Positions 4,126-37,104 of a stretch of 39,399 bases of DNA are shown here, one piece after another; positions within the stretch are counted from its first letter, which is position 1, and every line of letters starts with the position of its first letter. The notes below the pieces were generated by a model, which saw only the letters and a program-made list of their open reading frames with translations, made no database searches and was not told the origin of the DNA. Both the position numbers and the translations under genes were made by a program. The stretch spans positions 1 to 39,399 of the forward strand of contig CAIQPO010000043.1 of assembly GCA_903873735.1 (NCBI GenBank), given 5' to 3'. Source of the stretch: Candidatus Collierbacteria bacterium (GTDB lineage: Bacteria > Patescibacteriota > Microgenomatia > UBA1400 > MFAQ01).

Positions 4126-4185
4126 CCTCCTCAAATTAAAAAGTTCGGATTTGAGTATTCTACCCTATAACCTAAAATAAGTCAA
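4126..4185 (-). promoter_or_regulatory. Cassette 1 promoter + boxA-like motif + SD
   Basis: TTGACT(4185-4180)-17-TAGAAT(4162-4157); CGAACTTTTTA (4147-4137); GGAGG (4130-4126). Confidence 0.75.
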
Positions 4186-4187
4186 AA

Positions 4188-4619
4188 TTACCCAGGGAAA
4201 TTTTTACTTACCAGCCTGTTCACCACGCTACCATCTACTTTTCCTCTAAGCTTGCCCATCACCAACCCCATTAGTCTCCCGCCTCTCACACCACTCGTCT
4301 CTGCTTCAGCCTTAATCACAGACAGCACCTCTTCCTCATCCATCATTTTTGGTAAATATTTTTGAATTTCTTCCAGTTCGTATTTCTCTTGATCTGCCCT
4401 CTCTACTGCTCCTGCTTTCTCATAAACTTCAATCGACTCCCTTCTCTTTTTCTGCTCCTTCATCAGCACTTTGATTATCTCCTCATCATTCAACTCACTT
4501 TGCTTATCCACCTGGGCATAACCAATTTCTGTAAGCAGCAATCTGATTACACCCAGCAAACGAACATCTTTGGCTTTTTGAGCCTCTACCATGTCCGCTT
4601 TTATTTGTGAATAAAGCAT
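4188..4619 (-). CDS. yqeY: GatB/YqeY domain protein
   Basis: KKRRESIEVY, ELEEIQKYLP, MGLVMGKLRGKVDG; follows rpsU as in many bacteria. Confidence 0.9.
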   Translation of the reverse strand: MLYSQIKADMVEAQKAKDVRLLGVIRLLLTEIGYAQVDKQSELNDEEIIKVLMKEQKKRRESIEVYEKAGAVERADQEKYELEEIQKYLPKMMDEEEVLSVIKAEAETSGVRGGRLMGLVMGKLRGKVDGSVVNRLVSKNFPG

Positions 4620-4625
4620 TTTTTA

Positions 4626-4853
4626 TTATTTTTTAGTGATACCTGCAAGTCTCTTATTTCTTCTTCTAATCTTAGCAGAAGCCTTTCTTAGCTCAGTCAT
4701 TTTGATATTCTTAAGCTTTGATGGCTTTTGGTATCCAGTCATGCCCACAGACTTGACCCGTTCAAGACCCTGATCTTCAAAAGTCAGTTTCCTAAATTCA
4801 TTGATCATCTGTTGTGCATTTTGTCCTTGCTTCTTGCGCACGACAATTGCCAT
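4626..4853 (-). CDS. rpsU: 30S ribosomal protein bS21
   Basis: Small basic protein with YQKPS motif in HIT-rpsU-yqeY synteny; GGAGG SD. Confidence 0.75.
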   Translation of the reverse strand: MAIVVRKKQGQNAQQMINEFRKLTFEDQGLERVKSVGMTGYQKPSKLKNIKMTELRKASAKIRRRNKRLAGITKK

Positions 4854-4890
4854 AAAGATACACCTCCTTTTTTTAAATACAATCTACTTA

Positions 4891-5238
4891 TTAAGTTTGG
4901 CCGGCTGGTTCAGTCTTTGTTCCACCTAATATATGAATATGTTCATGACTAAAGTGGTTATATCCTGCCCCATTATTCACCAGCTTGTATCCAGTCTTAT
5001 CCAAACCCTGCTCCGATACAACGGCAAAAACGGCTTCCATTATTTTACCCCAAAACACCCCTGAATTACTAGAGGCTACTTCTTTCTTGTCTTTATGATC
5101 TTTTGGAATAACCAGTAGATGTACTGGTGCAACCGGATACTTGTTTTTTATACACAAAAACTTATCATTTTCCCAAACTTTCACTGAGGGCTCTACACCT
5201 TCAGTGATTTTGCAAAACAAACAAGATTGATCTTTCAT
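4891..5238 (-). CDS. HIT (histidine triad) family nucleotide hydrolase
   Basis: CLFCKI, PVAPVHLLVIPK, HEHIHILGG triad; start moved to ATG 5238, just after the rseP stop. Confidence 0.92.
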   Translation of the reverse strand: MKDQSCLFCKITEGVEPSVKVWENDKFLCIKNKYPVAPVHLLVIPKDHKDKKEVASSNSGVFWGKIMEAVFAVVSEQGLDKTGYKLVNNGAGYNHFSHEHIHILGGTKTEPAGQT

Positions 5239-5239
5239 G

Positions 5240-6322: not shown

Positions 6323-6337
6323 TGCCTAATTTTACAT

Positions 6338-6360
6338 AAAAAACCCGCCAATTGGCGGGT
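6338..6360 (-). terminator. Intrinsic terminator, cassette 2
   Basis: Palindrome ACCCGCCAATTGGCGGGT plus T run on the minus strand. Confidence 0.8.
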
Positions 6361-6367
6361 AAATCTT

Positions 6368-6655
6368 TCAAGCAGCAACAGGTAAAGCCTGCAGCTTTTC
6401 ATAGGCGAGGCGCACTTCAGTTTCCATTTCTGGACGGTAAGTGCAGATTCCGCGCGTGTCACGCGGCTGTCCTTCAATGTACTGCGCCGTTGACGGTGAA
6501 CCAATACATTCGCCCTCTGGCAGAATATGACGACTCTCTCCTTCATCGAAGACCATCTGATTTCTGGTGTAACCCATCAATTCATAGAGCAACCAGGCGT
6601 CATTGTTGGGTTGCACTGGCTGGCCACAGCGATCACAGGTAGGTAAGTTGCACAT
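6368..6655 (-). CDS. Cassette 2 cargo: hypothetical protein (95 aa) with N-terminal CxxC
   Basis: Start placed at ATG 6655 (MCNLPTCDRCG) after GAGGAG SD; own promoter and terminator. Confidence 0.75.
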   Translation of the reverse strand: MCNLPTCDRCGQPVQPNNDAWLLYELMGYTRNQMVFDEGESRHILPEGECIGSPSTAQYIEGQPRDTRGICTYRPEMETEVRLAYEKLQALPVAA

Positions 6656-6660
6656 ATCAT

Positions 6661-6730
6661 CTCCTCTGACAACAAAGTCCAGTTTAAAGAGCAATTGATG
6701 CATTATAGGGTATATTCTCCTAAAAGTCAA
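6661..6730 (-). promoter_or_regulatory. Cassette 2 promoter + near-consensus boxA + SD
   Basis: TTGACT(6730-6725)-17-TATAAT(6707-6702); TGCTCTTTAAA (6693-6683) versus E. coli rrn boxA TGCTCTTTAACA; GAGGAG (6666-6661). Confidence 0.8.
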
Positions 6731-6755
6731 AAAACCCACCCCTTCTAAGGGTGGG
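6729..6755 (-). terminator. Intrinsic terminator, cassette 3
   Basis: CCCACCC...GGGTGGG stem; its T run supplies the TT of the next -35 box (TTTTTTGACT). Confidence 0.8.
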
Positions 6756-6763
6756 CAATCATC

Positions 6764-7111
6764 TCAACACATCTTGTTAATTCTGCTTTCCAGATCAGCC
6801 ATCTGCTGAGCAATAATCTGATCCCAGTCAGAGGTATAAGCTTTAGCAGGATTTTCAGGCTCAACATAATCTCCAAGCACGTCGCCCGCCCTAACCTTGA
6901 AAACAGCCCCATTCAACAGATGAAGCTCGATCAGGTTATCCTCAAGACGTACTACACTCAAGCATGCTGGAGATGTTTTTGCCTGCTGCTCAAAGGCAGA
7001 AAGTGCAGTCAGCTGATTTGACCCTACTGCCGTAAAACCAGGAACAACTTGAAAATCCTTCCCCGGCCATGAAGCTTCTAGAGCAAAAACCTTCTCTGGA
7101 ATAGAGTTCAT
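6764..7111 (-). CDS. Cassette 3 cargo: hypothetical protein (115 aa)
   Basis: GGAGGT SD, own -10, boxA-like motif and terminator; no family recognised. Confidence 0.75.
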   Translation of the reverse strand: MNSIPEKVFALEASWPGKDFQVVPGFTAVGSNQLTALSAFEQQAKTSPACLSVVRLEDNLIELHLLNGAVFKVRAGDVLGDYVEPENPAKAYTSDWDQIIAQQMADLESRINKMC

Positions 7112-7116
7112 TCGTC

Positions 7117-7158
7117 ACCTCCAAAGACTTCAGAATAAATGTTCGATGCTTAATTATA
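7117..7158 (-). promoter_or_regulatory. Cassette 3 -10 box + boxA-like motif + SD
   Basis: TATAAT (7158-7153); CGAACATTTAT (7145-7135); GGAGGT (7122-7117); no clear -35. Confidence 0.65.
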
Positions 7159-8056: not shown

Positions 8057-8100
8057 TAAAATACATCCCTATAAACAGCACTTTGACCAAGAAAAGGAGG
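8057..8100 (+). promoter_or_regulatory. Cassette 4 -10 box + boxA-like motif + SD
   Basis: TAAAAT (8057-8062); AGCACTTTGAC (8077-8087); GGAGG (8096-8100). Confidence 0.65.
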
Positions 8101-8105: not shown

Positions 8106-8396
8106 ATGAATACTCTCTATGTCCTTATGAGCCTTTTTGGCATTAATTTTCTTCCTAAAGGCTTCGCCCCCATCCCCGGTAAGACATTCTCCAAAGGAAG
8201 CGGCATAATTTACGGACACGAAATTGGGGCAAATAAAAACCTGCGTCTGGAATATCAAGGTGCCACCGCCAACCCGACTTTCAAAAAGGATAAAGACTCC
8301 ATCTGTGTTTATTTCGGCAACGGCTTTGTCTGCCTTTTCCCCGATGGCAGTGTGGTCATCACCGACTGTATCAACCTCTCACTCCAGGTATACTAA
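8106..8396 (+). CDS. Cassette 4 cargo: hypothetical protein (96 aa)
   Basis: AAGGAGG SD, terminator right after the stop; lies antisense between tsf and frr. Confidence 0.7.
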   Translation: MNTLYVLMSLFGINFLPKGFAPIPGKTFSKGSGIIYGHEIGANKNLRLEYQGATANPTFKKDKDSICVYFGNGFVCLFPDGSVVITDCINLSLQVY

Positions 8397-8906: not shown

Positions 8907-9785
8907 TTATTTTTTAATATCTTTAAGTCCTAAAGATAGGGCAGTTTCTACCTCTTTGACTACAATTTCCAATCCCTTTACGGAGTCATCATTCATTGGG
9001 ATGATGAAATCAACCATGTCAGGATTTGAATTTGAATCAACTAAACCAACTACCTTCACTCCTCTTGATTTAGCCTCTTTTACAGCCAATCTTTCCTTGT
9101 GAGTATCAAAAACAATCACCATCTCAGGAACATCCCTAAGGTTCACCAAACCACCCACTACTCTTTCAAGTCTAGCAATCTCCTTGTCAAACAATACTTG
9201 TTCCTTTTTGGTGTATTTCTTTAGCTGTCCAGAATCTCTCTTTGATCTTAAGGAAACTAATCTCTCGATTGTCTGTCTCACCTGTTTCCAGTTGGTAATC
9301 AAACCGCCCATCCATCTTTGGGATAAATAGGACACACCTATTCTCTTTGCCATTTCCTCGATCATGGGTTTTACTTGTCTTTTTGTACCAACTACCACGA
9401 TTCTCTTGCCAGATGATGCAGCTTGATTAATCTCTTTTGTAGCTTCAGCTAATTTACTTAATGTGATTTCCAAATCAAAAATATGAACTCCATTCTTCTC
9501 ACCCCAAAGATACTTCTTCATCTTTGGATTCCATTTTTTCACCACATGTCCGAAATGAGCTCCAGCTTCGAAAAGCTGTTCTACGGTTACTCCAACTTGT
9601 GGTTTAACTTCTTTCTCAACTTTTTTCTCTTCAACAACGGCTTCTACTTTTATTTCTTCAACTTCTTTTTTAGCAGCCACCTTTTTTACAGGAGTTTTCT
9701 TTACTACTTCTTTCTTAACAACTTTCTTTGTAGTAGTTTTTTTGGTCTCTACCTCGACCTTTTTTTCTTCGGCTTTTTTTGCCAT
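8907..9785 (-). CDS. rpsB: 30S ribosomal protein uS2 with Lys/Glu/Val-rich N-terminal extension
   Basis: EAGAHFGH, WNPKM, VVGTKRQ, RWMGGLITNW, IPMNDDS. Confidence 0.97.
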   Translation of the reverse strand: MAKKAEEKKVEVETKKTTTKKVVKKEVVKKTPVKKVAAKKEVEEIKVEAVVEEKKVEKEVKPQVGVTVEQLFEAGAHFGHVVKKWNPKMKKYLWGEKNGVHIFDLEITLSKLAEATKEINQAASSGKRIVVVGTKRQVKPMIEEMAKRIGVSYLSQRWMGGLITNWKQVRQTIERLVSLRSKRDSGQLKKYTKKEQVLFDKEIARLERVVGGLVNLRDVPEMVIVFDTHKERLAVKEAKSRGVKVVGLVDSNSNPDMVDFIIPMNDDSVKGLEIVVKEVETALSLGLKDIKK

Positions 9786-9920: not shown

Positions 9921-9994
9921 TTGACTTTTACGCACAAATATGCTATCATCCACCATTAGCACTTTAACCTGACTGACACTGACCTAAGCGGAGG
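9921..9994 (+). promoter_or_regulatory. Cassette 5 promoter + boxA-like motif + SD
   Basis: TTGACT(9921-9926)-17-TATCAT(9944-9949) with extended TG; AGCACTTTAAC (9958-9968); GGAGG (9990-9994). Confidence 0.8.
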
Positions 9995-9998: not shown

Positions 9999-10556
9999 AT
10001 GTTTTGGCAAATCTATTTACCCTTGGGTGTTTTTGCCCTGTTCTTCATTATGGGAATTATCAGCGCCGTCAGATCAGACGATCCTGAAATCGTCGGTAGT
10101 GGATTCAGGGTAGGAGTAGCATTTGGAATACTCTTCCTCTTCTTTGGCTTCTTGATCAACACTTTTTTCGGCCCAAAAATTTCGGCAAGTTCAATACCGG
10201 ATATCGAACATCCAACATATCTTGCCTCTTTCAGTGGTGACAAAGAACTTTTTGGCACATATGGTGCTTTCATAGTCGCCAGTGGCACTCTCAGTGAAAA
10301 ACGGCAGTATGAGTACTATTTCTATCTGCCTGATTCAAACAAGATTGCCTTCGCCAAAGTCGATGCTGCAACCGCCCTTATTGTGGAGGATAGCCCAGAT
10401 CGCCCATACATGATCAAGATTAAATCAGTATGCCCGAAAATCGACCCCCAAGGCAACTTCTGGCTTATTACCAGCTGCAACAATTACATCCCCTACGTTA
10501 TCGAATTCCATGTTCCGCAAGGCTCCGTAGTTCAGGAATTCATCGCCAACCCCTAG
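9999..10556 (+). CDS. Cassette 5 cargo: two-TM membrane protein with soluble C-terminal domain
   Basis: Two N-terminal hydrophobic helices; C-terminal EFHVPQGSVVQ resembles the next gene. Confidence 0.8.
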   Translation: MFWQIYLPLGVFALFFIMGIISAVRSDDPEIVGSGFRVGVAFGILFLFFGFLINTFFGPKISASSIPDIEHPTYLASFSGDKELFGTYGAFIVASGTLSEKRQYEYYFYLPDSNKIAFAKVDAATALIVEDSPDRPYMIKIKSVCPKIDPQGNFWLITSCNNYIPYVIEFHVPQGSVVQEFIANP

Positions 10557-10597: not shown

Positions 10598-10660
10598 TTG
10601 ACATACAAATAACTCAGTGATATCCTATAGGTCGTACTTTCCCATTTCTGTTCGATGGAG
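10598..10660 (+). promoter_or_regulatory. Cassette 6 promoter + boxA-like motif + SD
   Basis: TTGACA(10598-10603)-17-TATCCT(10621-10626) with extended TG; CGTACTTTCCC (10633-10643, degenerate); GGAG (10657-10660). Confidence 0.7.
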
Positions 10661-10669: not shown

Positions 10670-11224
10670 ATGCTCACACCAATCATCGTTTTGCTTATCG
10701 GCTTGCTCATCTTCCGCAAGGTGTACTTCTATGCGGACCCTGACATTCGCGATAGTCGACCAAGCTTCGACAAAGAAATGTTTATCCTCGTGGCGATCGT
10801 TGCCATCTTTGCGGGACTTTTGACTGGTGTACTCACCAGCATGGCTTTCCCCACTGTTTCTGTCGCCAACGACCCAGTAAAGCTGGAAACCATGGATATC
10901 AGCGGCCCCGAAATTCAGGGTCGATTCTTCCTGGGATCAGGCTACATCGACAGCGAAGAATACTACGTCTTCCGCTATTATGTGCCTGGCATGAACAATG
11001 TCCTCCGCGACGGCAAAGTCTATCGCTACGAACCGCGTTACCAGGTTATCAACCTGATTCGCGATCAAGAAGCTGACTCTGCCTACTATGTCACCTATCA
11101 TTACGAGTTCGCCTGGGATTGGGCCAAGTGGTTAGCATACAGCCCCATGGACACCACCCCGGAAATATATGATTTCCACATTCCGGCGAACGCCATCGTC
11201 CCGCAGATCAGCATCCAGAAATAG
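10670..11224 (+). CDS. Cassette 6 cargo: two-TM membrane protein, probable homologue of cassette 5 cargo
   Basis: Start placed at ATG 10670 after GGAG; two TM helices, GRFFLGSGYID, YDFHIPANAIVPQ. Confidence 0.8.
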   Translation: MLTPIIVLLIGLLIFRKVYFYADPDIRDSRPSFDKEMFILVAIVAIFAGLLTGVLTSMAFPTVSVANDPVKLETMDISGPEIQGRFFLGSGYIDSEEYYVFRYYVPGMNNVLRDGKVYRYEPRYQVINLIRDQEADSAYYVTYHYEFAWDWAKWLAYSPMDTTPEIYDFHIPANAIVPQISIQK

Positions 11225-14189: not shown

Positions 14190-14240
14190 TATACTTTCCC
14201 ACCAGCGTACCTTTACAGGCTTCTTTTAGACACAAGGAGG
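14190..14240 (+). promoter_or_regulatory. Cassette 7 -10 box + boxA-like motif + SD
   Basis: TATACT (14190-14195); CGTACCTTTAC (14206-14216); GGAGG (14236-14240). Confidence 0.65.
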
Positions 14241-14244: not shown

Positions 14245-14463
14245 TTGTCCAAAAAAATTACCACAGTACTAAGTAAAAAGGAAAGGGCCAAGCTCCTAAA
14301 CCTTAACCCAACTCCTGGAAGTGAACTTACTCTTCATCGCAATCATCCCCATACCAGCGACGAACACCCTTTTCTGCATACAGACATTGTCCACGTTCGG
14401 TATCTTGGCGATGAAGTTTTTGAATATTTGTACAAAGAACACATTCCCTGTGAACCAAACTAA
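14245..14463 (+). CDS. Cassette 7 cargo: His-rich hypothetical protein (72 aa, TTG start)
   Basis: AAGGAGG SD 4 nt before TTG; terminator 7 nt after the stop. Confidence 0.65.
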   Translation: MSKKITTVLSKKERAKLLNLNPTPGSELTLHRNHPHTSDEHPFLHTDIVHVRYLGDEVFEYLYKEHIPCEPN

Positions 14464-17405: not shown

Positions 17406-17427
17406 AAAAGCGGGCCGTTAGGCCCGC
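17404..17427 (-). terminator. Intrinsic terminator, cassette 8
   Basis: GCGGGCC-4 nt-GGCCCGC plus T run on minus; the cargo stop codon lies in the loop. Confidence 0.8.
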
Positions 17428-17939
17428 AGAGCTTCGCATATCTCCACGTTGGAGATGCGAAAGAGATGGGGGCCCAGGTCTTTAACCAAAGGTTCGTCGT
17501 CTTGTACCGACCAACAAGCCTTGGCAAACAGTGAGTCTCCATCAATATCGTCGAGATAGAATCTCACTAAGTATGCCTGGCTTACCTCACGATAGCGTGC
17601 AATGTCCTGATCAGGCAGTGCGTGGACGGAAGGCTCTGATGCAAATCGGTATTTACCGCTTTCATCAGGGCAAATCACCGCCCAACATACCTGCTTACCA
17701 TTCAGCTTATGCATTGCTTTCAGCTTCTGGTAAAACAGCTCAGAGACTGCGTCAGCCGGATCGGTAATGACATGAAGGCCATCATCCTGCATTCCAAGCA
17801 CAGCCACTGCCTTGTCGCTCCAAAATACTTGAAACCGCGCCGGACCCTCATAAGGCCGAACAGCGCTCCCTTCCGGAAGCAACATTCGAATATCTTCTTC
17901 AGTCACAGAACCTGAAATTTGTAACACAGCATGGCACAT
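17418..17939 (-). CDS. Cassette 8 cargo: hypothetical protein (173 aa)
   Basis: GAGGAGG SD, own promoter, boxA-like motif and terminator; GC-richer than flanks. Confidence 0.8.
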   Translation of the reverse strand: MCHAVLQISGSVTEEDIRMLLPEGSAVRPYEGPARFQVFWSDKAVAVLGMQDDGLHVITDPADAVSELFYQKLKAMHKLNGKQVCWAVICPDESGKYRFASEPSVHALPDQDIARYREVSQAYLVRFYLDDIDGDSLFAKACWSVQDDEPLVKDLGPHLFRISNVEICEALRA

Positions 17940-17947: not shown

Positions 17948-18016
17948 CCTCCTCTCTTTAAATAAGATTCATCAAAGTACAGCGCGTATTATAAGACCAA
18001 ATCCTATATATATCAA
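17948..18016 (-). promoter_or_regulatory. Cassette 8 promoter + boxA-like motif + SD
   Basis: TTGATA(18016-18011, overlapping the topA stop)-17-TATAAT(17993-17988); TGTACTTTGAT (17981-17971); GGAGG (17952-17948). Confidence 0.8.
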
Positions 18017-20007
18017 GAAGCAGTCTCTACTTCTCCTTTTTGCTGTGGTTTGTGCCAACTTGCCCATGTACAGTTCGGGTAATCCTCACATCCATAAAAA
18101 TCTCTACCGGTCTTAGTTTTTTTAAGAACTACTCGCTTACCGCATTTCTCACAAGTCACTCCATCAACATATTCAATATACTGGTCTGTGTATTTACATT
18201 CTGGATATTTATCACAACTTAAAAACTTTCCAAACTTTCCATCTCTTATCACCACTTCTCCAGTTTTACACTCTGGGCATTTTTTTCCAGTAGAAATTGT
18301 GGGCACAGCTACCCTAGCACTTTCTTTATCTACTATTGCCAATCTATCCTTAAACGTATCCCAAAAATTACTTAGCATTTTTTCCCAGTTCTCCTTACCA
18401 TCAGCCACCAAATCCAAATCATCCTCCATCTTGGCTGTAAACTCATACTCCATCTCTGTTGGGAAGTTTTTCATTAAGAAATCAGTCACCGCTTCACCAA
18501 TTGAAGTAGCAAAAAATCTTCTTTCTCTTTGTTCTACATATCTTCTATCCTGAATGGTTGAAATAATTGCAGCATAAGTAGAAGGTCTACCGATTCCCCT
18601 CTTCTCCAACTCCCTTATCAAAGAGGCATCATTGTATCTTGCTGGAGGTTGGGTAAATTTTTGTTCCGACAACACTTTTTCTTTCTTCAATTTTTCTCCA
18701 GCTATCACTTCTGGAATTATTTGTGCCTCACCATTCTCCTTGGGAAATAGCTTCTTCCAACCTTCGAATTTAATTGTATTCCCATTACCAGTAAGCAAAT
18801 ACTTTCCACACAACACAGACACTCCAGTATCATCAAAAATCGCATCATTCATCTGACAAGCCACAGTTCTCCTCCAAATAAGCGAGTAAAGCTTAGATTG
18901 GTCAGCCATCATTCCATCTTGTCCTTTATAGGCACCAGGGGTAACACTGACATTTGTTGGTCTTACTGCCTCATGAGCTTCTTGCGCTACCACTTTCCCA
19001 CTTGCTTTATAAACTCTCGGCACATTTGACACAAAAGTCGCCCCATATTCTGACTCAATCTGTTTTCTAATCTGGTCAATAGCGGAATCAACTAAATTTA
19101 GAGAATCAGTACGATGGTAGGTAATGTCACCTTGTTCATATAATCTCTGAGCTACATTCATTGTCCTCTTTGCTGACCACCCAAAAGCATTTGCTGCAGC
19201 CTGCTGTAGAGTTGATGTTTTGAAGGGTGGGTGTGGAGCCACATGTCTTTCTGTCTTTGTAAGCTTGGAAACTTCATACTCGCCCTTCTCCAAATCAGAT
19301 ACAACTCTACCAGCAATCTCTCCGCTATTAACTACTGCTTTCTTGTTATCGATCTTTGCCAGCTGAATTTCAAATGCTTTACCGTTTTTTGTTGTCACCA
19401 AAGCGGAAATCTCCCAATACTCTACCGGTTTAAATTTTTGGATCTCTCTTTCCCGCTCTACTATCAACCTCACCGCAACGCTCTGGACTCTTCCAGCTGA
19501 TAAACCCCTTCTCACCTTTTTCCACAAAATTGGAGACAATTTATAGCCCACCAATCTATCCAAGAAGCGTCTAGCTTGTTGGGCATTCACCAGATTCATA
19601 TCTACCTGTCTGGGATTGTCCAAAGCCTCAAGAATTGCCTCTTTGGTAATTGAGTGAAAAGTAATTCGTTTTACTTCTGTCCCCTTTTTAAGTGAACTTC
19701 TAAGAAGTGATGACACATGCCAAGCTATTGCCTCCCCTTCACGGTCAGGATCTGATGCCAATATAATTTCACTGGCTTTTTTTGCCTCCTTCTCCAACAG
19801 GCTTACTTGTTCATCTTTTCCTTTCATCACTTTATATTCAGGAATGAAATCATAGACCGCTTTACCCTTTTCTTTAATTTCTATTCCAAATTTACTTTCA
19901 GGTAAGTCACGAACATGACCCATACTGGCCATGATCTTGAAATCACTTCCTAAGTACTTAGATAAACTTTTTGTTTTTGTGGGTGATTCGACAATGACTA
20001 AACGCAT
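18013..20007 (-). CDS. topA: DNA topoisomerase I
   Basis: LVIVESPTK, ASDPDREGEAI, SAGRVQS, ITYHRTDS, GIGRPSTYA, C-terminal C4 zinc ribbons. Confidence 0.98.
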   Translation of the reverse strand: MRLVIVESPTKTKSLSKYLGSDFKIMASMGHVRDLPESKFGIEIKEKGKAVYDFIPEYKVMKGKDEQVSLLEKEAKKASEIILASDPDREGEAIAWHVSSLLRSSLKKGTEVKRITFHSITKEAILEALDNPRQVDMNLVNAQQARRFLDRLVGYKLSPILWKKVRRGLSAGRVQSVAVRLIVEREREIQKFKPVEYWEISALVTTKNGKAFEIQLAKIDNKKAVVNSGEIAGRVVSDLEKGEYEVSKLTKTERHVAPHPPFKTSTLQQAAANAFGWSAKRTMNVAQRLYEQGDITYHRTDSLNLVDSAIDQIRKQIESEYGATFVSNVPRVYKASGKVVAQEAHEAVRPTNVSVTPGAYKGQDGMMADQSKLYSLIWRRTVACQMNDAIFDDTGVSVLCGKYLLTGNGNTIKFEGWKKLFPKENGEAQIIPEVIAGEKLKKEKVLSEQKFTQPPARYNDASLIRELEKRGIGRPSTYAAIISTIQDRRYVEQRERRFFATSIGEAVTDFLMKNFPTEMEYEFTAKMEDDLDLVADGKENWEKMLSNFWDTFKDRLAIVDKESARVAVPTISTGKKCPECKTGEVVIRDGKFGKFLSCDKYPECKYTDQYIEYVDGVTCEKCGKRVVLKKTKTGRDFYGCEDYPNCTWASWHKPQQKGEVETAS

Positions 20008-20049
20008 ACTTAATAAGATTACAACATTTTTTAGTGAGGGTATTCTAGC

Positions 20050-20082
20050 AAAAAAAATCTCCTGTGATAAATCACAGGAGAT
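20050..20082 (-). terminator. Intrinsic terminator of the large RNA (cassette 9)
   Basis: ATCTCCTGTGAT-TT-ATCACAGGAGAT followed by a T run on minus. Confidence 0.85.
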
Positions 20083-20088
20083 AAGGCA

Positions 20089-20545
20089 TCAAATGAGAGC
20101 AACCGGAGAGGGCGGCTAAGCCGCAAACATTGGGCTTGCCGCCCTCCCGGAAAAGAAAATACAGCATCACCTTTAGGTAGCCTAAAGACTCAATATGCAC
20201 TCTCGGGCCACATTGCCCGAAGCACGGAGTCTGGCACTACCTACTAAGCACGTGGCATGGAGCCACGCCCTACCCCATCTGGAGGAGGGTTGGCTTAGTC
20301 CGCATTGCGGCGTGCTGTTTCTGAAGTACCCCAAAAAGGGTATTTTATGCTAAGGCCGCGGAACGGTCTAGGCATCTTCAGCCAAGTCAGGATATCGAGG
20401 ACTTGGACTCTTACCCCGCCGCGAGGGAAAAAGAAAAAACGCGGGGCTTACAACCACAAGGGGCCGGTGCAGTGTCGCTGCTTTCGTCGGCTTCCCGAGA
20501 TAAAGACATTCATATCTTCATTTCAGGAAGTCGACTCTCATTTAA
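20089..20545 (-). ncRNA. Putative large structured non-coding RNA (~455 nt), class not recognised
   Basis: Own promoter, boxA-like motif and terminator but no SD-led ORF; 5' TTAAATGAGAGT pairs with 3' GCTCTCATTTGA; more than ten nested helices visible by eye. Confidence 0.75.
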
Positions 20546-20602
20546 TTAAAGTTCACTCAAAAAGAGTACGGGTATAATATCACCACATTATCACTTTGTC
20601 AA
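20545..20602 (-). promoter_or_regulatory. Cassette 9 (RNA) promoter + boxA-like motif
   Basis: TTGACA(20602-20597)-17-TATTAT(20579-20574) with extended TG; TGAACTTTAAT (20555-20545) directly before the closing helix. Confidence 0.8.
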
Positions 20603-20620
20603 GTACTATGAGTTTGATAC

Positions 20621-25103: not shown

Positions 25104-26171
25104 TTACCTCAATCCACCCACTACTCTTACCTTAGAAAGCAGCTTGTCATCCTCAAGTACTTTCGCACACCCTCGAACCACAGCTTCAAGTGGGTTTTCA
25201 GTTACCCACACAGGCATTCCAGTTTGCTCTGATATCAATTTATCAATATTTCGAATTAACGCTCCACCTCCTGCCATCACCAAACCCTTTTCTAAAATAT
25301 CAGACACCAAATCTGGTGGTGTTTCTTCAATTATTAAATGAATCTCAGATAATATCTGATTGATTACCGGCATCATTGCTTCTCTAATCTCAACACTATC
25401 AAGCTTTAAAGACTTAGGCAAACCATTATCCAAGCTTCTTCCTCTCACCACCACCTGTAAGGGGTTACCTTCTTTTTCTCGCTTCAAAGGATAAGCAGAT
25501 CCAACAGCAATTTTTACCTCTTCTGCTGTACTTTCTCCTAAAAGCATGTTGTACTTTAATCGAACATAATTCATGATCGATTCTGTTAATTCATCGCCTG
25601 CTACCCGCAAACTTCGATTTAACACCAAACCTCCAAGAGAAATTACTCCAATCTCGCTCGTTCCTCCACCAATATCACAAACCATATGACCTTCTGGCTT
25701 CTGGACCTGAAGTCCAGCTCCAATTGCAGCTGCCATTGGTTCTTCTACCAAAAATGCAGCCCTTGCTCCCGCAGATAAAGCCGCCTCCTGGACTGCCCGT
25801 CTTTCCACCTCTGTCACACCACTGGGTATACCAATTGCTACTCTAGGTCTAGGAATCTTCATTCCCAAGCCTTTATAGTATTCGTGCACCTCAACAATAT
25901 AATGCTTGAGCATGGCTTCAGCTGCATCAAAATCAGCTATTACACCATCTCGCAGTGGTCTCACCACTTCAATATTGGCTGGATTCTTACCCAGCATCTT
26001 CTTGGCCTCGTCACCAATTGCCAAAATCTCCTTCGACTTCATTTGTCTCGCCACCACCGATGGTTGTTTTATCACCACCCCCTTACCTCGCACGTGAACT
26101 ACGGTGTTTGCCGTTCCCAAGTCTATCCCTACATCCAGAGTGGCTAGCCTCCATAGTTTTTCCAGTATCAT
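25104..26171 (-). CDS. mreB: Rod shape-determining protein MreB
   Basis: GIDLGTANT, RPLRDGVIADF, EEPMAAAIGAG, DIGGGTSE, MAGGGAL. Confidence 0.98.
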   Translation of the reverse strand: MILEKLWRLATLDVGIDLGTANTVVHVRGKGVVIKQPSVVARQMKSKEILAIGDEAKKMLGKNPANIEVVRPLRDGVIADFDAAEAMLKHYIVEVHEYYKGLGMKIPRPRVAIGIPSGVTEVERRAVQEAALSAGARAAFLVEEPMAAAIGAGLQVQKPEGHMVCDIGGGTSEIGVISLGGLVLNRSLRVAGDELTESIMNYVRLKYNMLLGESTAEEVKIAVGSAYPLKREKEGNPLQVVVRGRSLDNGLPKSLKLDSVEIREAMMPVINQILSEIHLIIEETPPDLVSDILEKGLVMAGGGALIRNIDKLISEQTGMPVWVTENPLEAVVRGCAKVLEDDKLLSKVRVVGGLR

Positions 26172-26239
26172 TTTAAAAAGTCTATCTTAATACGCCTAAT
26201 CATATCAAACTATGCTATCATTGCGTACCCCCAAATATC

Positions 26240-26333
26240 TTGACTTTTTAGCTCAATTATGATATATTATAGGACTGTATTTGGCTAGCACTTTGAGAGT
26301 GTAAGACTCCCCTTTTCAGTAAAACAACAGGAG
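26240..26333 (+). promoter_or_regulatory. Cassette 10 promoter + boxA-like motif + SD
   Basis: TTGACT(26240-26245)-17-TATATT(26263-26268) with extended TG; AGCACTTTGAG (26287-26297); GGAG (26330-26333). Confidence 0.75.
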
Positions 26334-26341
26334 ATACTCAG

Positions 26342-26905
26342 ATGAAGAGATTCGCAGCCTTTATCGTGTTCTGTGTTCTGGTGGCAGCCATGTTTTTTGG
26401 GTTTGTACGCCCGGACCCCACGGAGTGTGGGAATTTCCATCCCCACCTCGACCAGTTCGGGAACAATCCCGCAGAAGTACTAAAGGCCATGGACTGGCTC
26501 ATCAGCTCTGGCAACTTCAACGCCTGGCAAGATGGGGCCCGCATTGTCCTGCAATTTAAATATGCAGGGCGCCTTGGCTTCGGTGCCTTTGGTACTGGCA
26601 ACCCCACCTTCTTCTTCCCTGACAACGGCATCGAGTACATCAGACAGCAGACAAATGGCCTCAACAAAATCACCAGCCAAAAGTCTCTCGATCAAATCAC
26701 TAACCACCTGTACTCATGTCGCAACAGCTTTGCCCGGCAGTATCAGCTAGCTGAAGTCCCTGTCCCTGCTCAACAACCAGCTCAGCAGCCTGCGGTCAAT
26801 TTTTCTCTCGACAGCTTGGCTCCACTGGCCATGACCGCCATGTTGGCAATCATCGTTATTGGCTGTGGCGCGCTGACCTTCGGGCGCAAACTGGCAATGG
26901 GGTAA
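26342..26905 (+). CDS. Cassette 10 cargo: exported protein with signal/TM, PAQQ linker and C-terminal TM
   Basis: MKRFAAFIVFCVLVAAMFF; PAQQPAQQPA; C-terminal hydrophobic helix with basic tail. Confidence 0.8.
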   Translation: MKRFAAFIVFCVLVAAMFFGFVRPDPTECGNFHPHLDQFGNNPAEVLKAMDWLISSGNFNAWQDGARIVLQFKYAGRLGFGAFGTGNPTFFFPDNGIEYIRQQTNGLNKITSQKSLDQITNHLYSCRNSFARQYQLAEVPVPAQQPAQQPAVNFSLDSLAPLAMTAMLAIIVIGCGALTFGRKLAMG

Positions 26906-26928
26906 ACACAACTCAATATGTAGTCAAC

Positions 26929-26958
26929 AAAACACGGTCCACCAGACCGTGTTTTTTT
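26929..26958 (+). terminator. Intrinsic terminator, cassette 10 (possibly bidirectional)
   Basis: AAAACACGGTC-CACCA-GACCGTGTTTT-TTT. Confidence 0.85.
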
Positions 26959-27526
26959 ATTCCTGAACTTGAGAAAACCTCTTACCAATCATCACATCCA
27001 CCCCAGAAATCCACTTTTCAGCAGAACCTCCAAGCAGACTCACCTCAGGACTCATTAGATATCCTTCATTCTCCTTAACTGCTGAAAATACCGGCTCGAT
27101 CACAGACCACCTCTCCTCTGTGTCTTTGGGAGCAACATTGCTTGCCACGAATTTTTCTACTAGCTGAATTACTGGTAACCAAAGCTGGGTTGGTAATGCA
27201 CCCATTTTTTGTTTTTCTCTTACCAACTCCGCTAAAGTGGTAAAGTCTGACTTCATCTCTTCCAAATCAGGTAACCTGATCACTCCATCTGGACCCACAG
27301 GAGGCTCAATCACTTCAACAGGCAAAACTGCACTATCAGCTACAGGATCTGGAGGTAAGTAGAATTCGTCATCAGGATCAGCAATTTCTGGCTCAGGAGG
27401 AGTAGTTCTTAGTGCACAATATCCTCTAATTTTTGTCTCAAGTAATCCAATTCTATCTACAGACGCAAAAAGCTCTCCTGCTAATGAATTATCCTGCTCA
27501 CCCGCTCCCTGTGTTGTATCTGGCAT
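26957..27526 (-). CDS. Hypothetical acidic Pro-rich protein
   Basis: Host-like composition; start tentatively ATG 27526 (MPDTTQG) to avoid overlap with the divergent gene. Confidence 0.6.
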   Translation of the reverse strand: MPDTTQGAGEQDNSLAGELFASVDRIGLLETKIRGYCALRTTPPEPEIADPDDEFYLPPDPVADSAVLPVEVIEPPVGPDGVIRLPDLEEMKSDFTTLAELVREKQKMGALPTQLWLPVIQLVEKFVASNVAPKDTEERWSVIEPVFSAVKENEGYLMSPEVSLLGGSAEKWISGVDVMIGKRFSQVQE

Positions 27527-29695: not shown

Positions 29696-30061
29696 TCACC
29701 TACCCACCTGCCTTAGGAAAAACAAATAATCCTTCCAAGTCAGTGCTACTACCACCGTATCATTTTGCCTTAACACCTTTATGTCGGCTGTTGGGTATGT
29801 TTCAATAAATTGCGTAAGCTGCCCCTCAGTCATCATTATAAAAAACATCGCCACTAATCTTTCAGGAAAGACCTCCACCACACAGCCAATTCTCACAAAT
29901 CCAGCCAGGTTTTCAATCTTTCGAGTCCCGATCAAACCCTTCATATTTTTACGACCCCACACAGCCTTACCCGCAAGCGATGCCCTTTTAACATACAGCA
30001 TCAACTGCCTGTCGGTCTCTTCCCTTTTACTACCAGAAAGAAAAACTTTCTCTCTTATCAT
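29696..30061 (-). CDS. Cassette 11 cargo: hypothetical protein (121 aa)
   Basis: GGAGG SD, -10, boxA-like motif and terminator. Confidence 0.7.
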   Translation of the reverse strand: MIREKVFLSGSKREETDRQLMLYVKRASLAGKAVWGRKNMKGLIGTRKIENLAGFVRIGCVVEVFPERLVAMFFIMMTEGQLTQFIETYPTADIKVLRQNDTVVVALTWKDYLFFLRQVGR

Positions 30062-30066: not shown

Positions 30067-30112
30067 CCTCCGTCGTGTCTAAAGTTTCTCAATGTTCGAT
30101 TTGTATATTCTA
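30067..30112 (-). promoter_or_regulatory. Cassette 11 -10 box + boxA-like motif + SD
   Basis: TAGAAT (30112-30107); CGAACATTGAG (30098-30088); GGAGG (30071-30067). Confidence 0.65.
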
Positions 30113-30741: not shown

Positions 30742-31230
30742 TTACCAGAGCACGACAAAGGAGACAAATAACCATACAGCCAAGAGGAGAAACGTGATAA
30801 ACATCGTAAACTCTGATGTTCCCACTTGACCCACCTGGTTAGTGGCAGTAAGCTCCACTGGGTTGTCAGCATTTACCACCTTGATGTACACATCGGTGGA
30901 ACATTTTTCTACTACCACCACCGTCCCTGGTCTAAGTACCAGCGAAGAGGTGTAGCCGTAAGGCGCACCACCTTCTGCCCGAGTTGAATCGATGTATTCA
31001 CCGTCAACCTTAAGCAAAAAAGTGTCACGGCTCACAATTGTTACCGACAGCTCCTCTTCGCGTTGTGGGTTGGCGTATGATACTGTCACTTTGCTACCAA
31101 CCCCAAGCTCCATAGATAAGTCGTGCCCGACCTGGTGACCGTTTTTGGTGGCATAAGACACACCACCCAAGAAAACGACAATCACCGCAGCTACAAATAC
31201 GAAGGTAAGCAATTTTTCCCAGAATTTCAA
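30742..31230 (-). CDS. Cassette 12 cargo: membrane protein with N- and C-terminal TM helices (162 aa, TTG start)
   Basis: AAGGAGG SD; hydrophobic termini around a beta-rich domain; antisense between def and fmt. Confidence 0.8.
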   Translation of the reverse strand: MKFWEKLLTFVFVAAVIVVFLGGVSYATKNGHQVGHDLSMELGVGSKVTVSYANPQREEELSVTIVSRDTFLLKVDGEYIDSTRAEGGAPYGYTSSLVLRPGTVVVVEKCSTDVYIKVVNADNPVELTATNQVGQVGTSEFTMFITFLLLAVWLFVSFVVLW

Positions 31231-31235: not shown

Positions 31236-31292
31236 CCTCCTTAATGTACGATATTTACCCTATAGAATATCACAGGTATAATATATTTGCAA
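31236..31292 (-). promoter_or_regulatory. Cassette 12 promoter + boxA-like motif + SD
   Basis: TTGCAA(31292-31287)-17-TATTCT(31269-31264) with extended TG; CGTACATTAAG (31250-31240); GGAGG (31240-31236). Confidence 0.7.
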
Positions 31293-34414: not shown

Positions 34415-35149
34415 CTAATACTCACCACGGGACTCAGCCAACTCACGATCGCGACGACGCTTTTTGGAGCCGTCATGACCACGTTCGTCAGCATATTCTC
34501 CCGTTTGAGAGCCACCCTTCTTGCCGCCCTTTTTGCCGCCCTTCTTGCCCTTCGGCTTGTCAGCCATGGGGGCGTCATTTGGGGCGACAGTCGCAACCGG
34601 AGCTGCCGGCTTCTTCTCGTCGGGCTTGTTGTAGCATACCCGGCAGAAGCGGAAGGGGCGGGCGCCGTCTTTGCGAGGCGGGATGGGTTCGCCACAGTCC
34701 TGGCAGAAGCCACCGTCCCATTGGAAAGTAGCCATCTCCTGCGAGATGTCGGTGATCAGCTTGACCACCTTGGTCGCCTCTGCTTTCGCCTCAGCAGCAC
34801 GAACCCGCAACAGGTCGTGGTAAGCCACATCAGCTTCGACCACCCTGTCGCGAAATGCCAGGTCAAAGAGCGCTTGGCCTTTGTGGCCCTTGGCGTTCTC
34901 TTCCCGGACAAATTCGGCGGCCTGGTCGAGAAGCTTGTAGTAGGCTTCCGTGGCCAGCTCGAGATCCGGCAGCTTGGCTGCAAAGCGCTTGATCGCGCCG
35001 TGCACGTCAAGCAGCTGCTGCACCGAGGCCGCGTCCTTAGCTACCTGCATTTTCTTCCAGTAGTGGGATTTTACCCCTTCATACTGAGCAGGAAGGTCCT
35101 CGATGGCCTTGATGATCTGCGACACGATGCGATCGATTCTTTCAGGCAT
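34415..35149 (-). CDS. Cassette 13 cargo: helical protein with DksA/TraR-type C4 zinc finger and Lys/Gly-rich tail (244 aa)
   Basis: Start ATG 35149 after AAGGAG; GFCQDCGEPIPPRKDGARPFRFCRVC; KPKGKKGGKKGGKKGG; markedly GC-rich. Confidence 0.8.
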   Translation of the reverse strand: MPERIDRIVSQIIKAIEDLPAQYEGVKSHYWKKMQVAKDAASVQQLLDVHGAIKRFAAKLPDLELATEAYYKLLDQAAEFVREENAKGHKGQALFDLAFRDRVVEADVAYHDLLRVRAAEAKAEATKVVKLITDISQEMATFQWDGGFCQDCGEPIPPRKDGARPFRFCRVCYNKPDEKKPAAPVATVAPNDAPMADKPKGKKGGKKGGKKGGSQTGEYADERGHDGSKKRRRDRELAESRGEY

Positions 35150-35157
35150 AGTCTCAT

Positions 35158-35222
35158 CTCCTTTGTGAAATAGGTGAATGTGCAAGTGGGAATATATTAC
35201 TCCTATAGGTTTATATTGTCAA
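35158..35222 (-). promoter_or_regulatory. Cassette 13 promoter + boxA-like motif + SD
   Basis: TTGACA(35222-35217, 1 nt after the Elp3 stop)-17-TAATAT(35199-35194); TGCACATTCAC (35184-35174); GGAG (35161-35158). Confidence 0.75.
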
Positions 35223-35223
35223 G

Positions 35224-36744
35224 CTACAAGTCCTTCACCATATACTGACCTTCCAACCTATAACCCAAGTTAAGATAATATTCTCTTGTGCCTATGGCTG
35301 AAATAATTGCCATTTTTTTATATCCATTTGTTAAGGCAATCTTTTCTGCCTCAATAAGAAGCTTCTTTCCCAATCCCCTATGCTGAGTTTTATCTTGTTC
35401 ATGAGTATTTAGCGATAAAACTTGACCATATGTGTGCACTTCTCTAACCACTGCTGCTCCTTTTATACCCAGCTTCTTTGCAATCTCACTTTCCTCATCA
35501 GGTAGTCTCAATCTAAGCATTGAATATAAATATGTATTATCTTCAAATGACAAAAACAGCTCCCTCCCTCCCAACGTTTTTCTATCATTACATCTTAACT
35601 CCAATCCTTCAGTCTGATGAACATTTCCCCTCACTTCTCTACATCTGATACATTTACAACTTCTCCCCTCCTCTTTTAGTTGTTTTTGTAATACTTGTCT
35701 TAGGTTTGTCCGCTGAGTTCCTACCGCCACCCATTTTTTGCTTATATCTCGCACCAGTCTATCAATCCTACAATAAACAGGTGTAAGCGTTTTTACCTCT
35801 TTCAACACTTCGATAAGCTTACTTTCATCATATGGTCTATACTCTCCCCGCTTCCACATTTCATACATCTCCGAACCTGGAATTGTCATTGCTGGATACA
35901 CCTTAAGATAGTCTGGACCAAAACGAGAATCCTCAAACATTAACTTTGCCATCTCATTATCTTTTTCAGGAGAAGAACCAGGCAAATTAGGCATAAAGTG
36001 ATAGCAAATTTTTAGTCCTGCATCTCTGCACATTCTAGTTGCTTCGGCTACTCTTTCCAAAGAGTGTCCTCTTTTAATTATACTTAGTATCTGTTCATCA
36101 AGCGCCTGCACTCCCATCTGTACTTTCGTCACCCCCATCGATCTCCATAAAACAATTTCATTTTCATTAATCCAATCAGGTCTTGTCTCAACTGATATCC
36201 CCACCACTCTTCTTTTTGCTGTCTGATTGAATTCAATTGCTCCCTCAAGTGACTCACTCACCACTCCATTTACCCCATCGTACATACCCTTAAAAAACTC
36301 TATCTTATATTCTCTTGTATACGCAGAAAATGTGCCTCCAATAACAATCAAGTCAATCTTATCTGTAGGGTGCCCGGTTTCTTCCATTTGTTTTATTCTG
36401 CCTTCAACTTGCAATCTTGGGTCAAAATTAAGCATTTTAGCTCTCTGCGCTGCTGGCTCATCGGAAAGATAAGACTTCGGCATCCCTTCTTCTAGTGGGC
36501 AATACACGCACTGCCCAGGACAAGGAAATGGCTTCATCATCACCGCGAATGGCGCCACACCACTTTCAGTTCTCACTCCTCTTGTTCTCAAGTACTCCCT
36601 CAAGTCAATATCATCAATATGTGGCCAAATATCAGAGTTTCTTGGCATCTGCCTTAACTCCCTTGACCATAGCCTGCGATAGTCCTCAAAATTTTCTAAA
36701 GTGATTTTCTCTCTGTCTCGCACTATTAATTCTTCTAGATTCAT
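35224..36744 (-). CDS. elp3: Elp3-family tRNA uridine(34) carboxymethyltransferase (radical SAM + KAT)
   Basis: VRTESGVAP, CPGQCVYCP, PKSY, GGTF, ETRPD, CKCIRCRE, VREVHTYG, QHRGLGKKL, ISAIGTREYY. Confidence 0.92.
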   Translation of the reverse strand: MNLEELIVRDREKITLENFEDYRRLWSRELRQMPRNSDIWPHIDDIDLREYLRTRGVRTESGVAPFAVMMKPFPCPGQCVYCPLEEGMPKSYLSDEPAAQRAKMLNFDPRLQVEGRIKQMEETGHPTDKIDLIVIGGTFSAYTREYKIEFFKGMYDGVNGVVSESLEGAIEFNQTAKRRVVGISVETRPDWINENEIVLWRSMGVTKVQMGVQALDEQILSIIKRGHSLERVAEATRMCRDAGLKICYHFMPNLPGSSPEKDNEMAKLMFEDSRFGPDYLKVYPAMTIPGSEMYEMWKRGEYRPYDESKLIEVLKEVKTLTPVYCRIDRLVRDISKKWVAVGTQRTNLRQVLQKQLKEEGRSCKCIRCREVRGNVHQTEGLELRCNDRKTLGGRELFLSFEDNTYLYSMLRLRLPDEESEIAKKLGIKGAAVVREVHTYGQVLSLNTHEQDKTQHRGLGKKLLIEAEKIALTNGYKKMAIISAIGTREYYLNLGYRLEGQYMVKDL

Positions 36745-36760
36745 CGCTTTATTTTAACCG

Positions 36761-36784
36761 AAAAAACCTACCATTAAGGTAGGT
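36761..36784 (-). terminator. Intrinsic terminator, cassette 14
   Basis: ACCTACC-5 nt-GGTAGGT plus T run on minus; the cargo stop lies in the loop. Confidence 0.7.
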
Positions 36785-36992
36785 ATATCACAAACTTCTT
36801 GCTTGTATCCAGTTTAGCTAGATTACTCTTTTTCCAAAAAATTATGTACACATCTCCATTAGGCATAATCACTTCTTTCGTGACATATACCTCTCCAAGT
36901 TCGGGGTGTTCATCGACTACCAACACACGATTGTCGTCTTTACCCTCAATCTCACGAACGAAATATGTTTTTAAAGCCCGTTTTTCAACCAG
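36774..36992 (-). CDS. Cassette 14 cargo: small hypothetical protein (~72 aa), start uncertain (CTG inferred)
   Basis: TAAAAT (37023-37018), GGAGG (37003-36999) 6 nt before in-frame CTG, terminator at the stop. Confidence 0.5.
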   Translation of the reverse strand: MVEKRALKTYFVREIEGKDDNRVLVVDEHPELGEVYVTKEVIMPNGDVYIIFWKKSNLAKLDTSKKFVIYLP

Positions 36993-37044
36993 TTCACACC
37001 TCCCTAATGTTTTCCATATTTTACTACACAAATACCTGAATAAC

Positions 37045-37104
37045 TTGAAAAATCTAATATTATCGGATATAATACGCACGAACGCACCCTAACATTCAAA
37101 GGAG
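37045..37104 (+). promoter_or_regulatory. Cassette 15 promoter + boxA-like motif + SD
   Basis: TTGAAA(37045-37050)-17-TATAAT(37068-37073); CGCACCCTAAC (37083-37093); GGAG (37101-37104). Confidence 0.75.

Follow-up and report, generated by a model that had tools for sequence, protein, structure and literature searches.

The window analyzed here (contig CAIQPO010000043.1 of assembly GCA_903873735.1 from a Candidatus Collierbacteria bacterium, 39,399 nucleotides (nt) in full length) raises a simple question: what is the short, oriented motif that recurs at the start of so many of its small orphan transcripts? The window represents the whole of one contig (C43) of a 1.01-Mb, 97-contig, 92%-complete Patescibacteria assembly, referred to below as the own genome (G000), and the stretch is present in lake-water metagenome DNA (two runs of one study). 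The closest named relatives of its DnaX come from metagenome-assembled genomes labelled 'Patescibacteria group'. Its core genes have a GC content of ca. 40% and are interspersed with short units of ca. 50% GC. Each of these units, here called cassettes, consists of a TTGACx-17-TATAAT promoter, a Shine-Dalgarno (SD) sequence, one open reading frame (ORF) and a hairpin with a T-run. An earlier note on this DNA had listed 14 copies of the motif at the 5' ends of cassette transcripts and had likened them to boxA. Based on an analysis of the window, the remaining genome and 40 relatives, we conclude that the motif is probably a lineage version of boxA, i.e. a single-stranded RNA element for the NusB-S10 (NusE) heterodimer. 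The three results that the earlier note had named as contrary to this reading, namely lack of enrichment over shuffled leaders, lack of similarity to the boxA of the genome's own rRNA operon (rrn) and absence of nusB, did not occur, which supports the boxA reading.

All 14 listed strings were found once each in the window, on the coding strand and between a -10-like hexamer and an SD with start codon, the copy at 20545-20555 (-) being followed by a structured non-coding RNA (ncRNA) instead (Table 1). Genes, promoters and start sites are heuristic predictions throughout, obtained with our own greedy ORF calls and our own promoter search. An unsupervised count of 7-mers in the 40 nt following 391 predicted promoters returned GCACATT, GCACTTT, GCACCTT and GTACTTT as the top four, enriched over the genome 24-fold (13 observed, 0.53 expected), 14-fold, 11-fold and 10-fold, respectively. 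Using the regular expression G[ACT]AC[ACT]TT, a promoter was located at most 30 nt upstream of 79 of 973 matches, compared with 17 of 1106 matches when the sequence was reversed and 22 of 973 when the antisense motif was used. A motif matrix was then derived by expectation-maximization on 236 leaders drawn from 253 promoter+SD+ORF units, giving the consensus N-G-[C.56/T.32]-[A.75/T.21]-C-[A.38/T.38/C.19]-T-T-N-A-[C/A]-A. Scores of at least 9 bits were reached in 62 of the 236 leaders while dinucleotide shuffles yielded 3.9 ± 1.9 (maximum 8) and the antisense strand one, an enrichment over shuffled leaders of ca. 15-fold. Because the matrix had been trained on the same leaders, two-fold cross-validation was carried out, seeded with the 6-mer core only and without a 3' seed. 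Held-out leaders contained 51 matches in 236 compared with 3.7 in shuffles, and the consensus learned was TGCACTTTAACA or AGCACATTCACA. Positions 9 to 11, which are free in the regular expression, are likewise non-random (A in 47/79 sites, p = 1.5e-8; C in 29/79, p = 3e-3; A in 35/79, p = 0.04); position 8 shows no preference, information is close to zero outside the motif and the flanks are unconserved. With this genome-trained matrix, 9 bits or more are reached by eight of the 14 window sites and 6 bits or more by 13; CGTACATTAAG has the lowest score (4.5 bits).

To compare gene classes, genes were grouped by ORF GC alone and the motif was searched for up to 110 nt upstream. For ORFs with a GC of at least 0.47 (n = 125) it was found in sense orientation in 51 cases and in antisense orientation in four, while ORFs with a GC below 0.44 (n = 756) showed background levels (28 sense, 29 antisense). 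Among strong-promoter units, 45 of 67 high-GC units carried a motif of at least 9 bits compared with three of 25 low-GC units. The distinction between cassettes and core genes drawn in the earlier note is thus borne out genome-wide, with rpsJ, which lies outside the window, as an exception. The wording that nearly every cassette carries the motif was somewhat generous at this scale, the fraction of strong-promoter units with an ORF GC of at least 0.47 being 45/67 at 9 bits or more and 55/67 at 7 bits or more. Genes for tRNAs and tmRNA constitute a negative control of little power, because a consensus promoter was recognizable in only 4 of 45; one of them (tRNA-Asn) has GCTCGTTGATA with 8.2 bits.

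Measured from the end of the -10 box, the G of the motif shows a sharp onset at 6 nt (10 sites), which is the expected start site, with only three matches of the regular expression at 2-4 nt. Distances range from 6 to ca. 30 nt with a median of 14. The 8-20 nt given in the earlier note were therefore roughly right, the observed range being wider at both ends. From the motif end to the SD, the median distance is 10 nt (interquartile range 5-17). As both distances vary, the motif always lies within the predicted transcribed and untranslated leader while being locked to neither of its ends. In predicted leader folds, the motif has an unpaired probability of 0.665, compared with 0.551 for the rest of the leader and 0.599 with shuffled flanks (Wilcoxon p = 0.002). 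Base composition differs as well, with C at 0.25-0.28 and G at 0.11-0.13 in motif-bearing leaders compared with 0.195 and 0.177 in strong-promoter leaders lacking the motif. Taken together, the strand bias among the 236 leaders (62 sense, one antisense), the onset at the predicted start site, the raised single-strandedness and the contrast with a second motif found both ways round (TATAGG/CCTATA) support the view, already expressed in the earlier note, that the motif is strand-specific and acts at the RNA level.

This second class-wide motif, frequently CCTATAGG or CCTATAAT, occurs in both orientations from just upstream of the -35 box to just after the -10 box. Of 109 strong promoters, 50 contain it (ca. 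1.3 expected), and it was found in 52 of 67 high-GC units compared with 15 of 41 others; sites in the window are 35199-35206 (CCTATAGG), 10620-10627, 4160-4166 and 26270-26276. It has the appearance of an operator or promoter element shared by the cassettes and acting at the level of DNA.

One link to boxA is provided by rRNA leaders. In the own genome, whose assembly contains no 23S gene, GCACTTTACAAA is located 89 nt before the 16S match (contig C27) and 6 nt after a TAAAAT box, so that the rrn leader of this genome does resemble the cassette motif. We further examined 25 rRNA loci of relatives, omitting five more with only 3' or internal 16S fragments, and found G[ACT][AT]C[ACT]TT within 350 nt upstream in 23 of them. 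The elements include GCTCTTTAACAA in G012, G015, G017, G022 and G024, GCTCTTTGAAAA in G026 and G035, GCACTTTAATAA in G030, GCACTTTGATAA in G007, GTACTTTAACAA in G019 and GTTCATTAACAA in G023. GCTCTTTAACAA and its variants lie at ca. -56 to -227, and GCTCTTTAACAA, GCACTTTAATAA, GCACTTTGATAA and GTACTTTAACAA represent canonical or near-canonical boxA homologous in place to GCACTTTACAAA. Such variant leaders imply that the rRNA boxA of the family is as free as the cassette motif at position 3 (A/T) and position 5 (T/A/C). In comparison with GYTCTTTAANA, the gamma-proteobacterial consensus as given by Baniulyte et al. 2017 (PMC5725501), 8 of 11 positions agree (G1, Y2, C4, T6, T7, A9, N10 as C/A, A11), the others being positions 3, 5 and 8. 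The positions described as critical are the G, C4 and the U6-U7/U8 pocket (PMC5725501, PMC3177189). As for the downstream genes themselves, the own 16S copy (G000:C27 1-694, -) matches in three pieces and the copies of G022 and G027 (L016, L024) are 2.0-2.4 kb long. Interrupted or extended 16S genes are known for bacteria of the Candidate Phyla Radiation (CPR) and also occur in the relatives studied here, whose genomes measure 0.5-1.3 Mb.

A second link is the leader of rpsJ, the gene for S10 (NusE). Within 110 nt upstream of rpsJ, a motif of at least 9 bits was found in 14 of 16 genomes of the own family (f1), the exceptions being G007 and G020; this count leaves out eight f1 genomes with an rpsJ match and no locus, and one more f1 genome lacked a match. 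Among genomes of other families of the order, 4 of 15 carry such a motif and several more have the canonical-looking GCTCTTTAAGG or GCTCGTTAACG. Upstream of rpsB, which served as control, no motif was detected in any of 15 f1 genomes or 14 genomes of other families. In an alignment of the tuf-rpsJ spacer (14 genomes, four genera), the only invariant spacer columns are those of the motif (G.AC.TT); its degenerate fifth position varies (T/A/C). In 14 of 16 family genomes, a block of the sequence (A)ATTAGCACNTTT is conserved in this spacer at a distance of 20-25 nt from the start of rpsJ (G000:C37 ~3211-3260, -; loci L145-L161), and no SD was seen between this block and the start codon. The protein partners were found as well. 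NusB is encoded on C86 (122 amino acids (aa); PDB NusB matches to E = 2.6e-20, T. maritima NusB; C-terminal FVNG kept) and S10 on C37, and NusA and Rho are also encoded, so that nusB, nusE and rho, all of which the earlier note had proposed to look for, are present. No copy of the motif was found upstream of nusB or nusA.

Counts of the combination promoter+GYACHTT are 27 for the own genome, 15, 9 and 17 for the three relatives of its genus (controls 0-2), 3 to 12 in genera g2 and g6, and at control level in other families of the order; the promoter+GYTC form occurs 4 to 8 times in several family genomes. Since the pattern demands a TTGAC -35 box, the lack of matches elsewhere may be due to promoters of another type. 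Homologous cassettes in G001, G008, G018 and G004 keep the motif at varied distances from the -10 box (6 to 28 nt) and with A/T exchange at position 3, while no motif was found at a remote cassette homologue in G012.

Several observations weigh against the boxA reading. Position 3 is A in 75% of sites (T 0.21) and U in canonical boxA, and position 5, for which PMC3177189 uses the number U6, is divided mainly among A (0.38), T (0.38) and C (0.19). For E. coli and lambda boxA, transversions at positions 2, 5 and 6 (numbering of that paper) are reported not to be tolerated (PMC3177189). Given these departures and the reported intolerance, NusB-S10 binding would need relaxed specificity in this lineage. 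Further, a comparison of 40 relatives revealed no clean relation between the base at position 3 of the mRNA-leader motif (A or T) and the type of rrn boxA in the same genome. G012 has GCTCTTTAACAA in its rrn leader, yet promoter+GYAC was counted nine times and GYTC five times (GYTC control 4), and the corresponding counts in G022 are three and six. This missing covariation would neither support nor refute the boxA reading if NusB and S10 of the family tolerate both bases. The matrix is also weak (ca. 9-10 bits), with 545 matches in the genome compared with 440 in the reversed genome, and single sites are therefore non-diagnostic. The excess is almost wholly promoter-proximal (78 matches with a promoter upstream compared with nine), which points to roughly 80-105 functional sites in the genome. 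Moreover, suhB was not found in the own assembly, and neither was NusG (PF02357), this assembly being 92% complete. In the family, PF02357 (NGN domain) was matched exactly once per genome in 21 of 24 genomes, two closed genomes among them, while the remaining three had no match. Finally, only 0-7 mRNA boxA targets per genome have been published, and ca. 100 sites would compete with rRNA for NusB and S10.

Part of this evidence would also suit a leader-RNA site for another RNA-binding protein or ribosomal component, such as S10 alone, a ribosomal-protein autoregulator or a CPR-specific factor, that controls translation or stability and whose site resembles boxA by partial convergence. The non-canonical bases at positions 3 (A) and 5 (A/T/C) and the very short distance to the SD (median 10 nt) can be read in this way. 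The same is true for G012, G017 and G022, which have a canonical rrn boxA yet carry GTACATTT or GCACATTT in the rpsJ leader, meaning that two variants coexist in one genome. We nevertheless consider such a factor unlikely. In rRNA leaders of the own genome and of other f1 genomes, the boxA position is occupied by the same variant, the 3' half (A-C/A-A) agrees with boxA although it was not part of the selection, the element also heads an ncRNA that has no SD, and no candidate factor was identified. Two candidates of a different kind were discarded. An RNase E cleavage site, for which the motif is R-N-W-U-U, was rejected as no RNase E/G gene (PF10150) was found in the own 92%-complete genome. 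Pairing with a fixed RNA such as 16S rRNA was rejected by argument only, because one complementary strand could not match three degenerate positions (C/T, A/T and A/T/C).

Alternatively, the signal might be read on DNA. NusG-dependent pausing occurs at T-rich non-template motifs, and the motif might be an ops-like or NusG-dependent pause or recruitment signal on the non-template DNA of the transcription bubble. Like ops, it is strand-specific, lacks palindromic symmetry, occurs within transcribed leaders at distances that vary and is associated with accessory genes. This possibility appears very improbable to us given that no specialized NusG paralogue was found (at most one NGN-domain match per genome in 24 family genomes), that shuffling of the flanks lowers the predicted single-strandedness of the motif in RNA and that it coincides with the rRNA boxA position. 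Double-stranded DNA (GCACTTTAAC) could also act as an operator or roadblock for a class-specific transcription factor, or the motif could be a hitch-hiking remnant of an ancestral promoter-leader module spread with the cassettes. Cassettes do share other promoter features, with TATAGG/CCTATA in 52/67 high-GC units, which implies class-wide DNA-level signals and possibly a common origin. Strict orientation, variable offsets from both promoter and SD and the lack of conserved flanks speak against an operator or remnant. In addition, homologues keep the motif while moving it, and the motif is conserved before rpsJ, a core gene without a cassette promoter. We therefore give this explanation the smallest chance of all.

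Returning to boxA, a working model can be outlined. A boxA variant would be transcribed in the short, C-rich and G-poor leaders of ca. 80-105 transcripts, comprising the 16S rRNA leader, the rpsJ leader, a large ncRNA and mainly higher-GC, self-contained orphan cassettes. NusB-S10 is predicted to bind leader RNA of the GCACUUUAACA type. Binding to the nascent leader would tether it to the elongating polymerase through NusA/NusG, and this tethering may set the access of Rho and the ribosome to the leader. Acting as a brake of the suhB type, NusB-S10 bound a few nt from the SD would lower translation initiation and expose C-rich RNA to Rho. S10 would then feed back on its own gene and the cassettes would follow the pool of free NusB and S10. 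The alternative is that the element protects foreign-looking transcripts from Rho. For mRNAs we lean slightly towards the brake, because the only characterized mRNA boxA elements are repressive and located next to the SD and because autoregulation of rpsJ needs negative feedback. A protective role, in contrast, would agree with the copies in rRNA and ncRNA leaders and with the fact that the cassettes resemble foreign DNA in composition. An argument for Rho-sensitivity from composition (C/G ratio of 1.11 in cassette ORFs compared with 0.86 in low-GC ORFs) was dropped, because the skew follows the DNA strand and not gene orientation, so that many core mRNAs are also C-rich; the + strand is C-rich over the entire contig regardless of gene orientation (GC skew -0.12 to -0.44). 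A broader proposal, which we put forward as a tentative possibility only, is that boxA serves as a tag within a module of single-gene cassettes that move between the genomes of this family of ultra-small bacteria. The NusB-S10 pair, essential and linked to the ribosome, would then govern ca. 10% of genes, either by shielding them from Rho or by limiting them according to the supply of ribosomes.

The proposed element can be compared with a number of known systems. Like the rrn boxA recognized by the NusB-S10/NusA/NusG/SuhB antitermination complex, it follows the core logic G-Y-x-C-x-T-T-x-A-C/A-A, appears single-stranded and is promoter-proximal on the transcript; the own 16S leader carries the cassette variant, and NusB, S10, NusA and Rho are encoded. 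Unlike rrn boxA, it is found mostly on short monocistronic orphan mRNAs, position 3 is mostly A, position 5 is degenerate and SuhB was not found. boxA elements on mRNA are not new. Targets described by Baniulyte et al. include the suhB 5' untranslated region of E. coli and Salmonella, rpsJ, prsA and a ParE-like toxin gene, and the suhB boxA, 6 nt from the SD, is repressive (PMC5725501). In gamma-proteobacteria, that paper reports a putative boxA upstream of rpsJ as well as autoregulation of Nus-factor genes; it lists 0 to 7 putative mRNA boxA sites per genome in 940 gamma-proteobacterial genomes and expects "only a few regulatory targets" per species (PMC5725501). The element studied here resembles this type in being located in mRNA leaders near the SD (6 nt in suhB, median of 10 nt here), and both include a copy before rpsJ, which suggests Nus-factor autoregulation. 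It differs in that ca. 80-105 sites appear to exist in 1 Mb and that most of them belong to accessory genes of a single class of base composition.

boxA is also part of lambdoid nut sites and of the leaders of CRISPR arrays. These share with the present element its use outside rRNA on mobile or non-translated transcripts, and the hairpin preceding the motif of the ncRNA recalls boxB/boxA; here, however, no N-like protein or CRISPR array is involved, and the targets are translated, have intrinsic terminators and number in the dozens. In the RfaH/ops system, a NusG paralogue recognizes ops on the non-template DNA strand and licenses horizontally acquired operons. There, too, accessory genes are distinguished by a short leader element of fixed orientation in the presence of Rho, whereas the sequence studied here is boxA-like and the search for a NusG paralogue in the family was negative. 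Phage morons are self-contained promoter-gene-terminator units, and the cassettes resemble them in having their own promoter, one gene and their own terminator and in being set between unrelated genes. In contrast to morons, the cassettes lie between core genes of a cellular genome and only 2 of 10 cassette proteins of the window match a phage family, both weakly (phrog_8077).

With mRNA boxA already known, what appears to be new is a class-wide tag on ca. 10% of the genes in a CPR family, with ca. 80-105 transcripts carrying it. In searches of the literature on boxA or NusB in connection with CPR/Patescibacteria, horizontally acquired genes and rpsJ autoregulation, and on Patescibacteria promoter motifs, no class-wide boxA tag was found, with the limitation that the supplementary tables of PMC5725501 may list more variants. 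Outside phages, Nus factors and boxA have been regarded as dedicated to rRNA with a handful of mRNA targets, as presented by Baniulyte et al. (PMC5725501). If NusB-S10 binds the leaders, a pair of ribosome-assembly factors would be used by CPR bacteria as a global regulator of their variable gene set, whose products are largely membrane-associated or secreted and which is the likeliest part of the genome to be involved in dealings with hosts and phages. CPR bacteria have very few transcription factors. Should the cassette-tag proposal be true, no larger Nus-factor regulon would be known, and a minimal genome would have a new means of controlling foreign-looking genes that requires no regulators of their own. 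Since it comprises only a short RNA and two small proteins and offers dozens of natural variants, the system would also be a testable one for determining when Nus complexes oppose and when they help Rho.

Table 1. Copies of the boxA-like motif in the window, with the predicted transcripts that they head.
Motif	Position	Strand	Transcript led by the motif	ORF	Promoter	Score (bits)	Remarks
CGAACTTTTTA	4137..4147	-	78-aa zinc-ribbon-like orphan	3884-4120	TTGACT-17-TAGAAT, 4185-4157	6.3	
TGCTCTTTAAA	6683..6693	-	95-aa orphan		TTGACT-17-TATAAT, 6730-6702	9.4	canonical boxA core
CGAACATTTAT	7135..7145	-	115-aa orphan	6764-7111		7.5	
AGCACTTTGAC	8077..8087	+	96-aa orphan	8106-8396		12.1	
AGCACTTTAAC	9958..9968	+	185-aa membrane orphan	9999-10556	9921-9949	12.1	weak phrog_8077 match
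CGTACTTTCCC	10633..10643	+	184-aa paralogue	10670-11224	10598-10626	12.0	
CGTACCTTTAC	14206..14216	+	72-aa orphan	14245-14463		12.0	
TGTACTTTGAT	17971..17981	-	173-aa orphan	17418-17939		6.1	
TGAACTTTAAT	20545..20555	-	structured ncRNA, ~480 nt (~20050-20545)		TTGACA-17-TATTAT, 20602-20574	7.8	small hairpin before the motif
AGCACTTTGAG	26287..26297	+	187-aa secreted/membrane orphan	26342-26905		10.3	homologues in G001, G008 and G018 with motif at other offsets
CGAACATTGAG	30088..30098	-	121-aa orphan	29696-30061		7.6	
CGTACATTAAG	31240..31250	-	162-aa orphan	30742-31230		4.5	adjoins SD; weakest site
TGCACATTCAC	35174..35184	-	244-aa orphan	34415-35149	35222-35194	12.7	promoter spacer with CCTATAGG
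CGCACCCTAAC	37083..37093	+	605-aa membrane orphan	37113-38930		11.2	position 6: C for T

The one listed copy that heads no ORF belongs to an ncRNA of ca. 480 nt (window 20040-20570, -) that has a consensus promoter and a terminator hairpin of its own. The 5' end of the RNA pairs with the 3' end, the predicted minimum free energy is -229 kcal/mol (z-score -8.6) and it contains no credible ORF. Rfam gave no match for the window at gathering thresholds and none for 19950-20700 up to E = 1, and a BLAST search of 40 relatives returned no homologue.

For the 62 ORFs with the motif, the medians are 155 aa for length and 0.504 for GC. A hydrophobic N-terminus is encoded by 31 of these ORFs, and 82% are followed by a T-run. 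None of the 10 cassette proteins of the window reached a Pfam gathering score, and the phage-family matches mentioned above are those of two paralogues to phrog_8077. A search of viral contigs with one cassette protein returned no relative. Two cassette proteins are each present in only 3 of 40 relatives (27-45% identity) and, judged by this distribution, the cassette class is accessory. Strong GC skew (-0.2 to -0.44) tracks the DNA strand and is much weaker in the ca. 50% GC cassettes (-0.12 to -0.19), which suggests that the class consists of recently acquired DNA. Elsewhere in the genome, contig C75 (G000:C75 ~100-2800, +, and ~25,500-27,000, -) contains at least six paralogous cassettes for membrane proteins of ca. 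150 aa (MSILHSPLFL... and relatives), each with its own promoter and boxA-like leader, two of which bear the variant GCTCGTTAACA.

A last observation concerns rpsB (window 8907-9785, -; loci L175-L191). In the family, its product has a lysine-rich N-terminal extension of ca. 45-117 residues. In the rpsB leader, an inverted pair (AATCTCT..GAAA...AAAAGAGAT) is conserved, which may point to autoregulation by S2.

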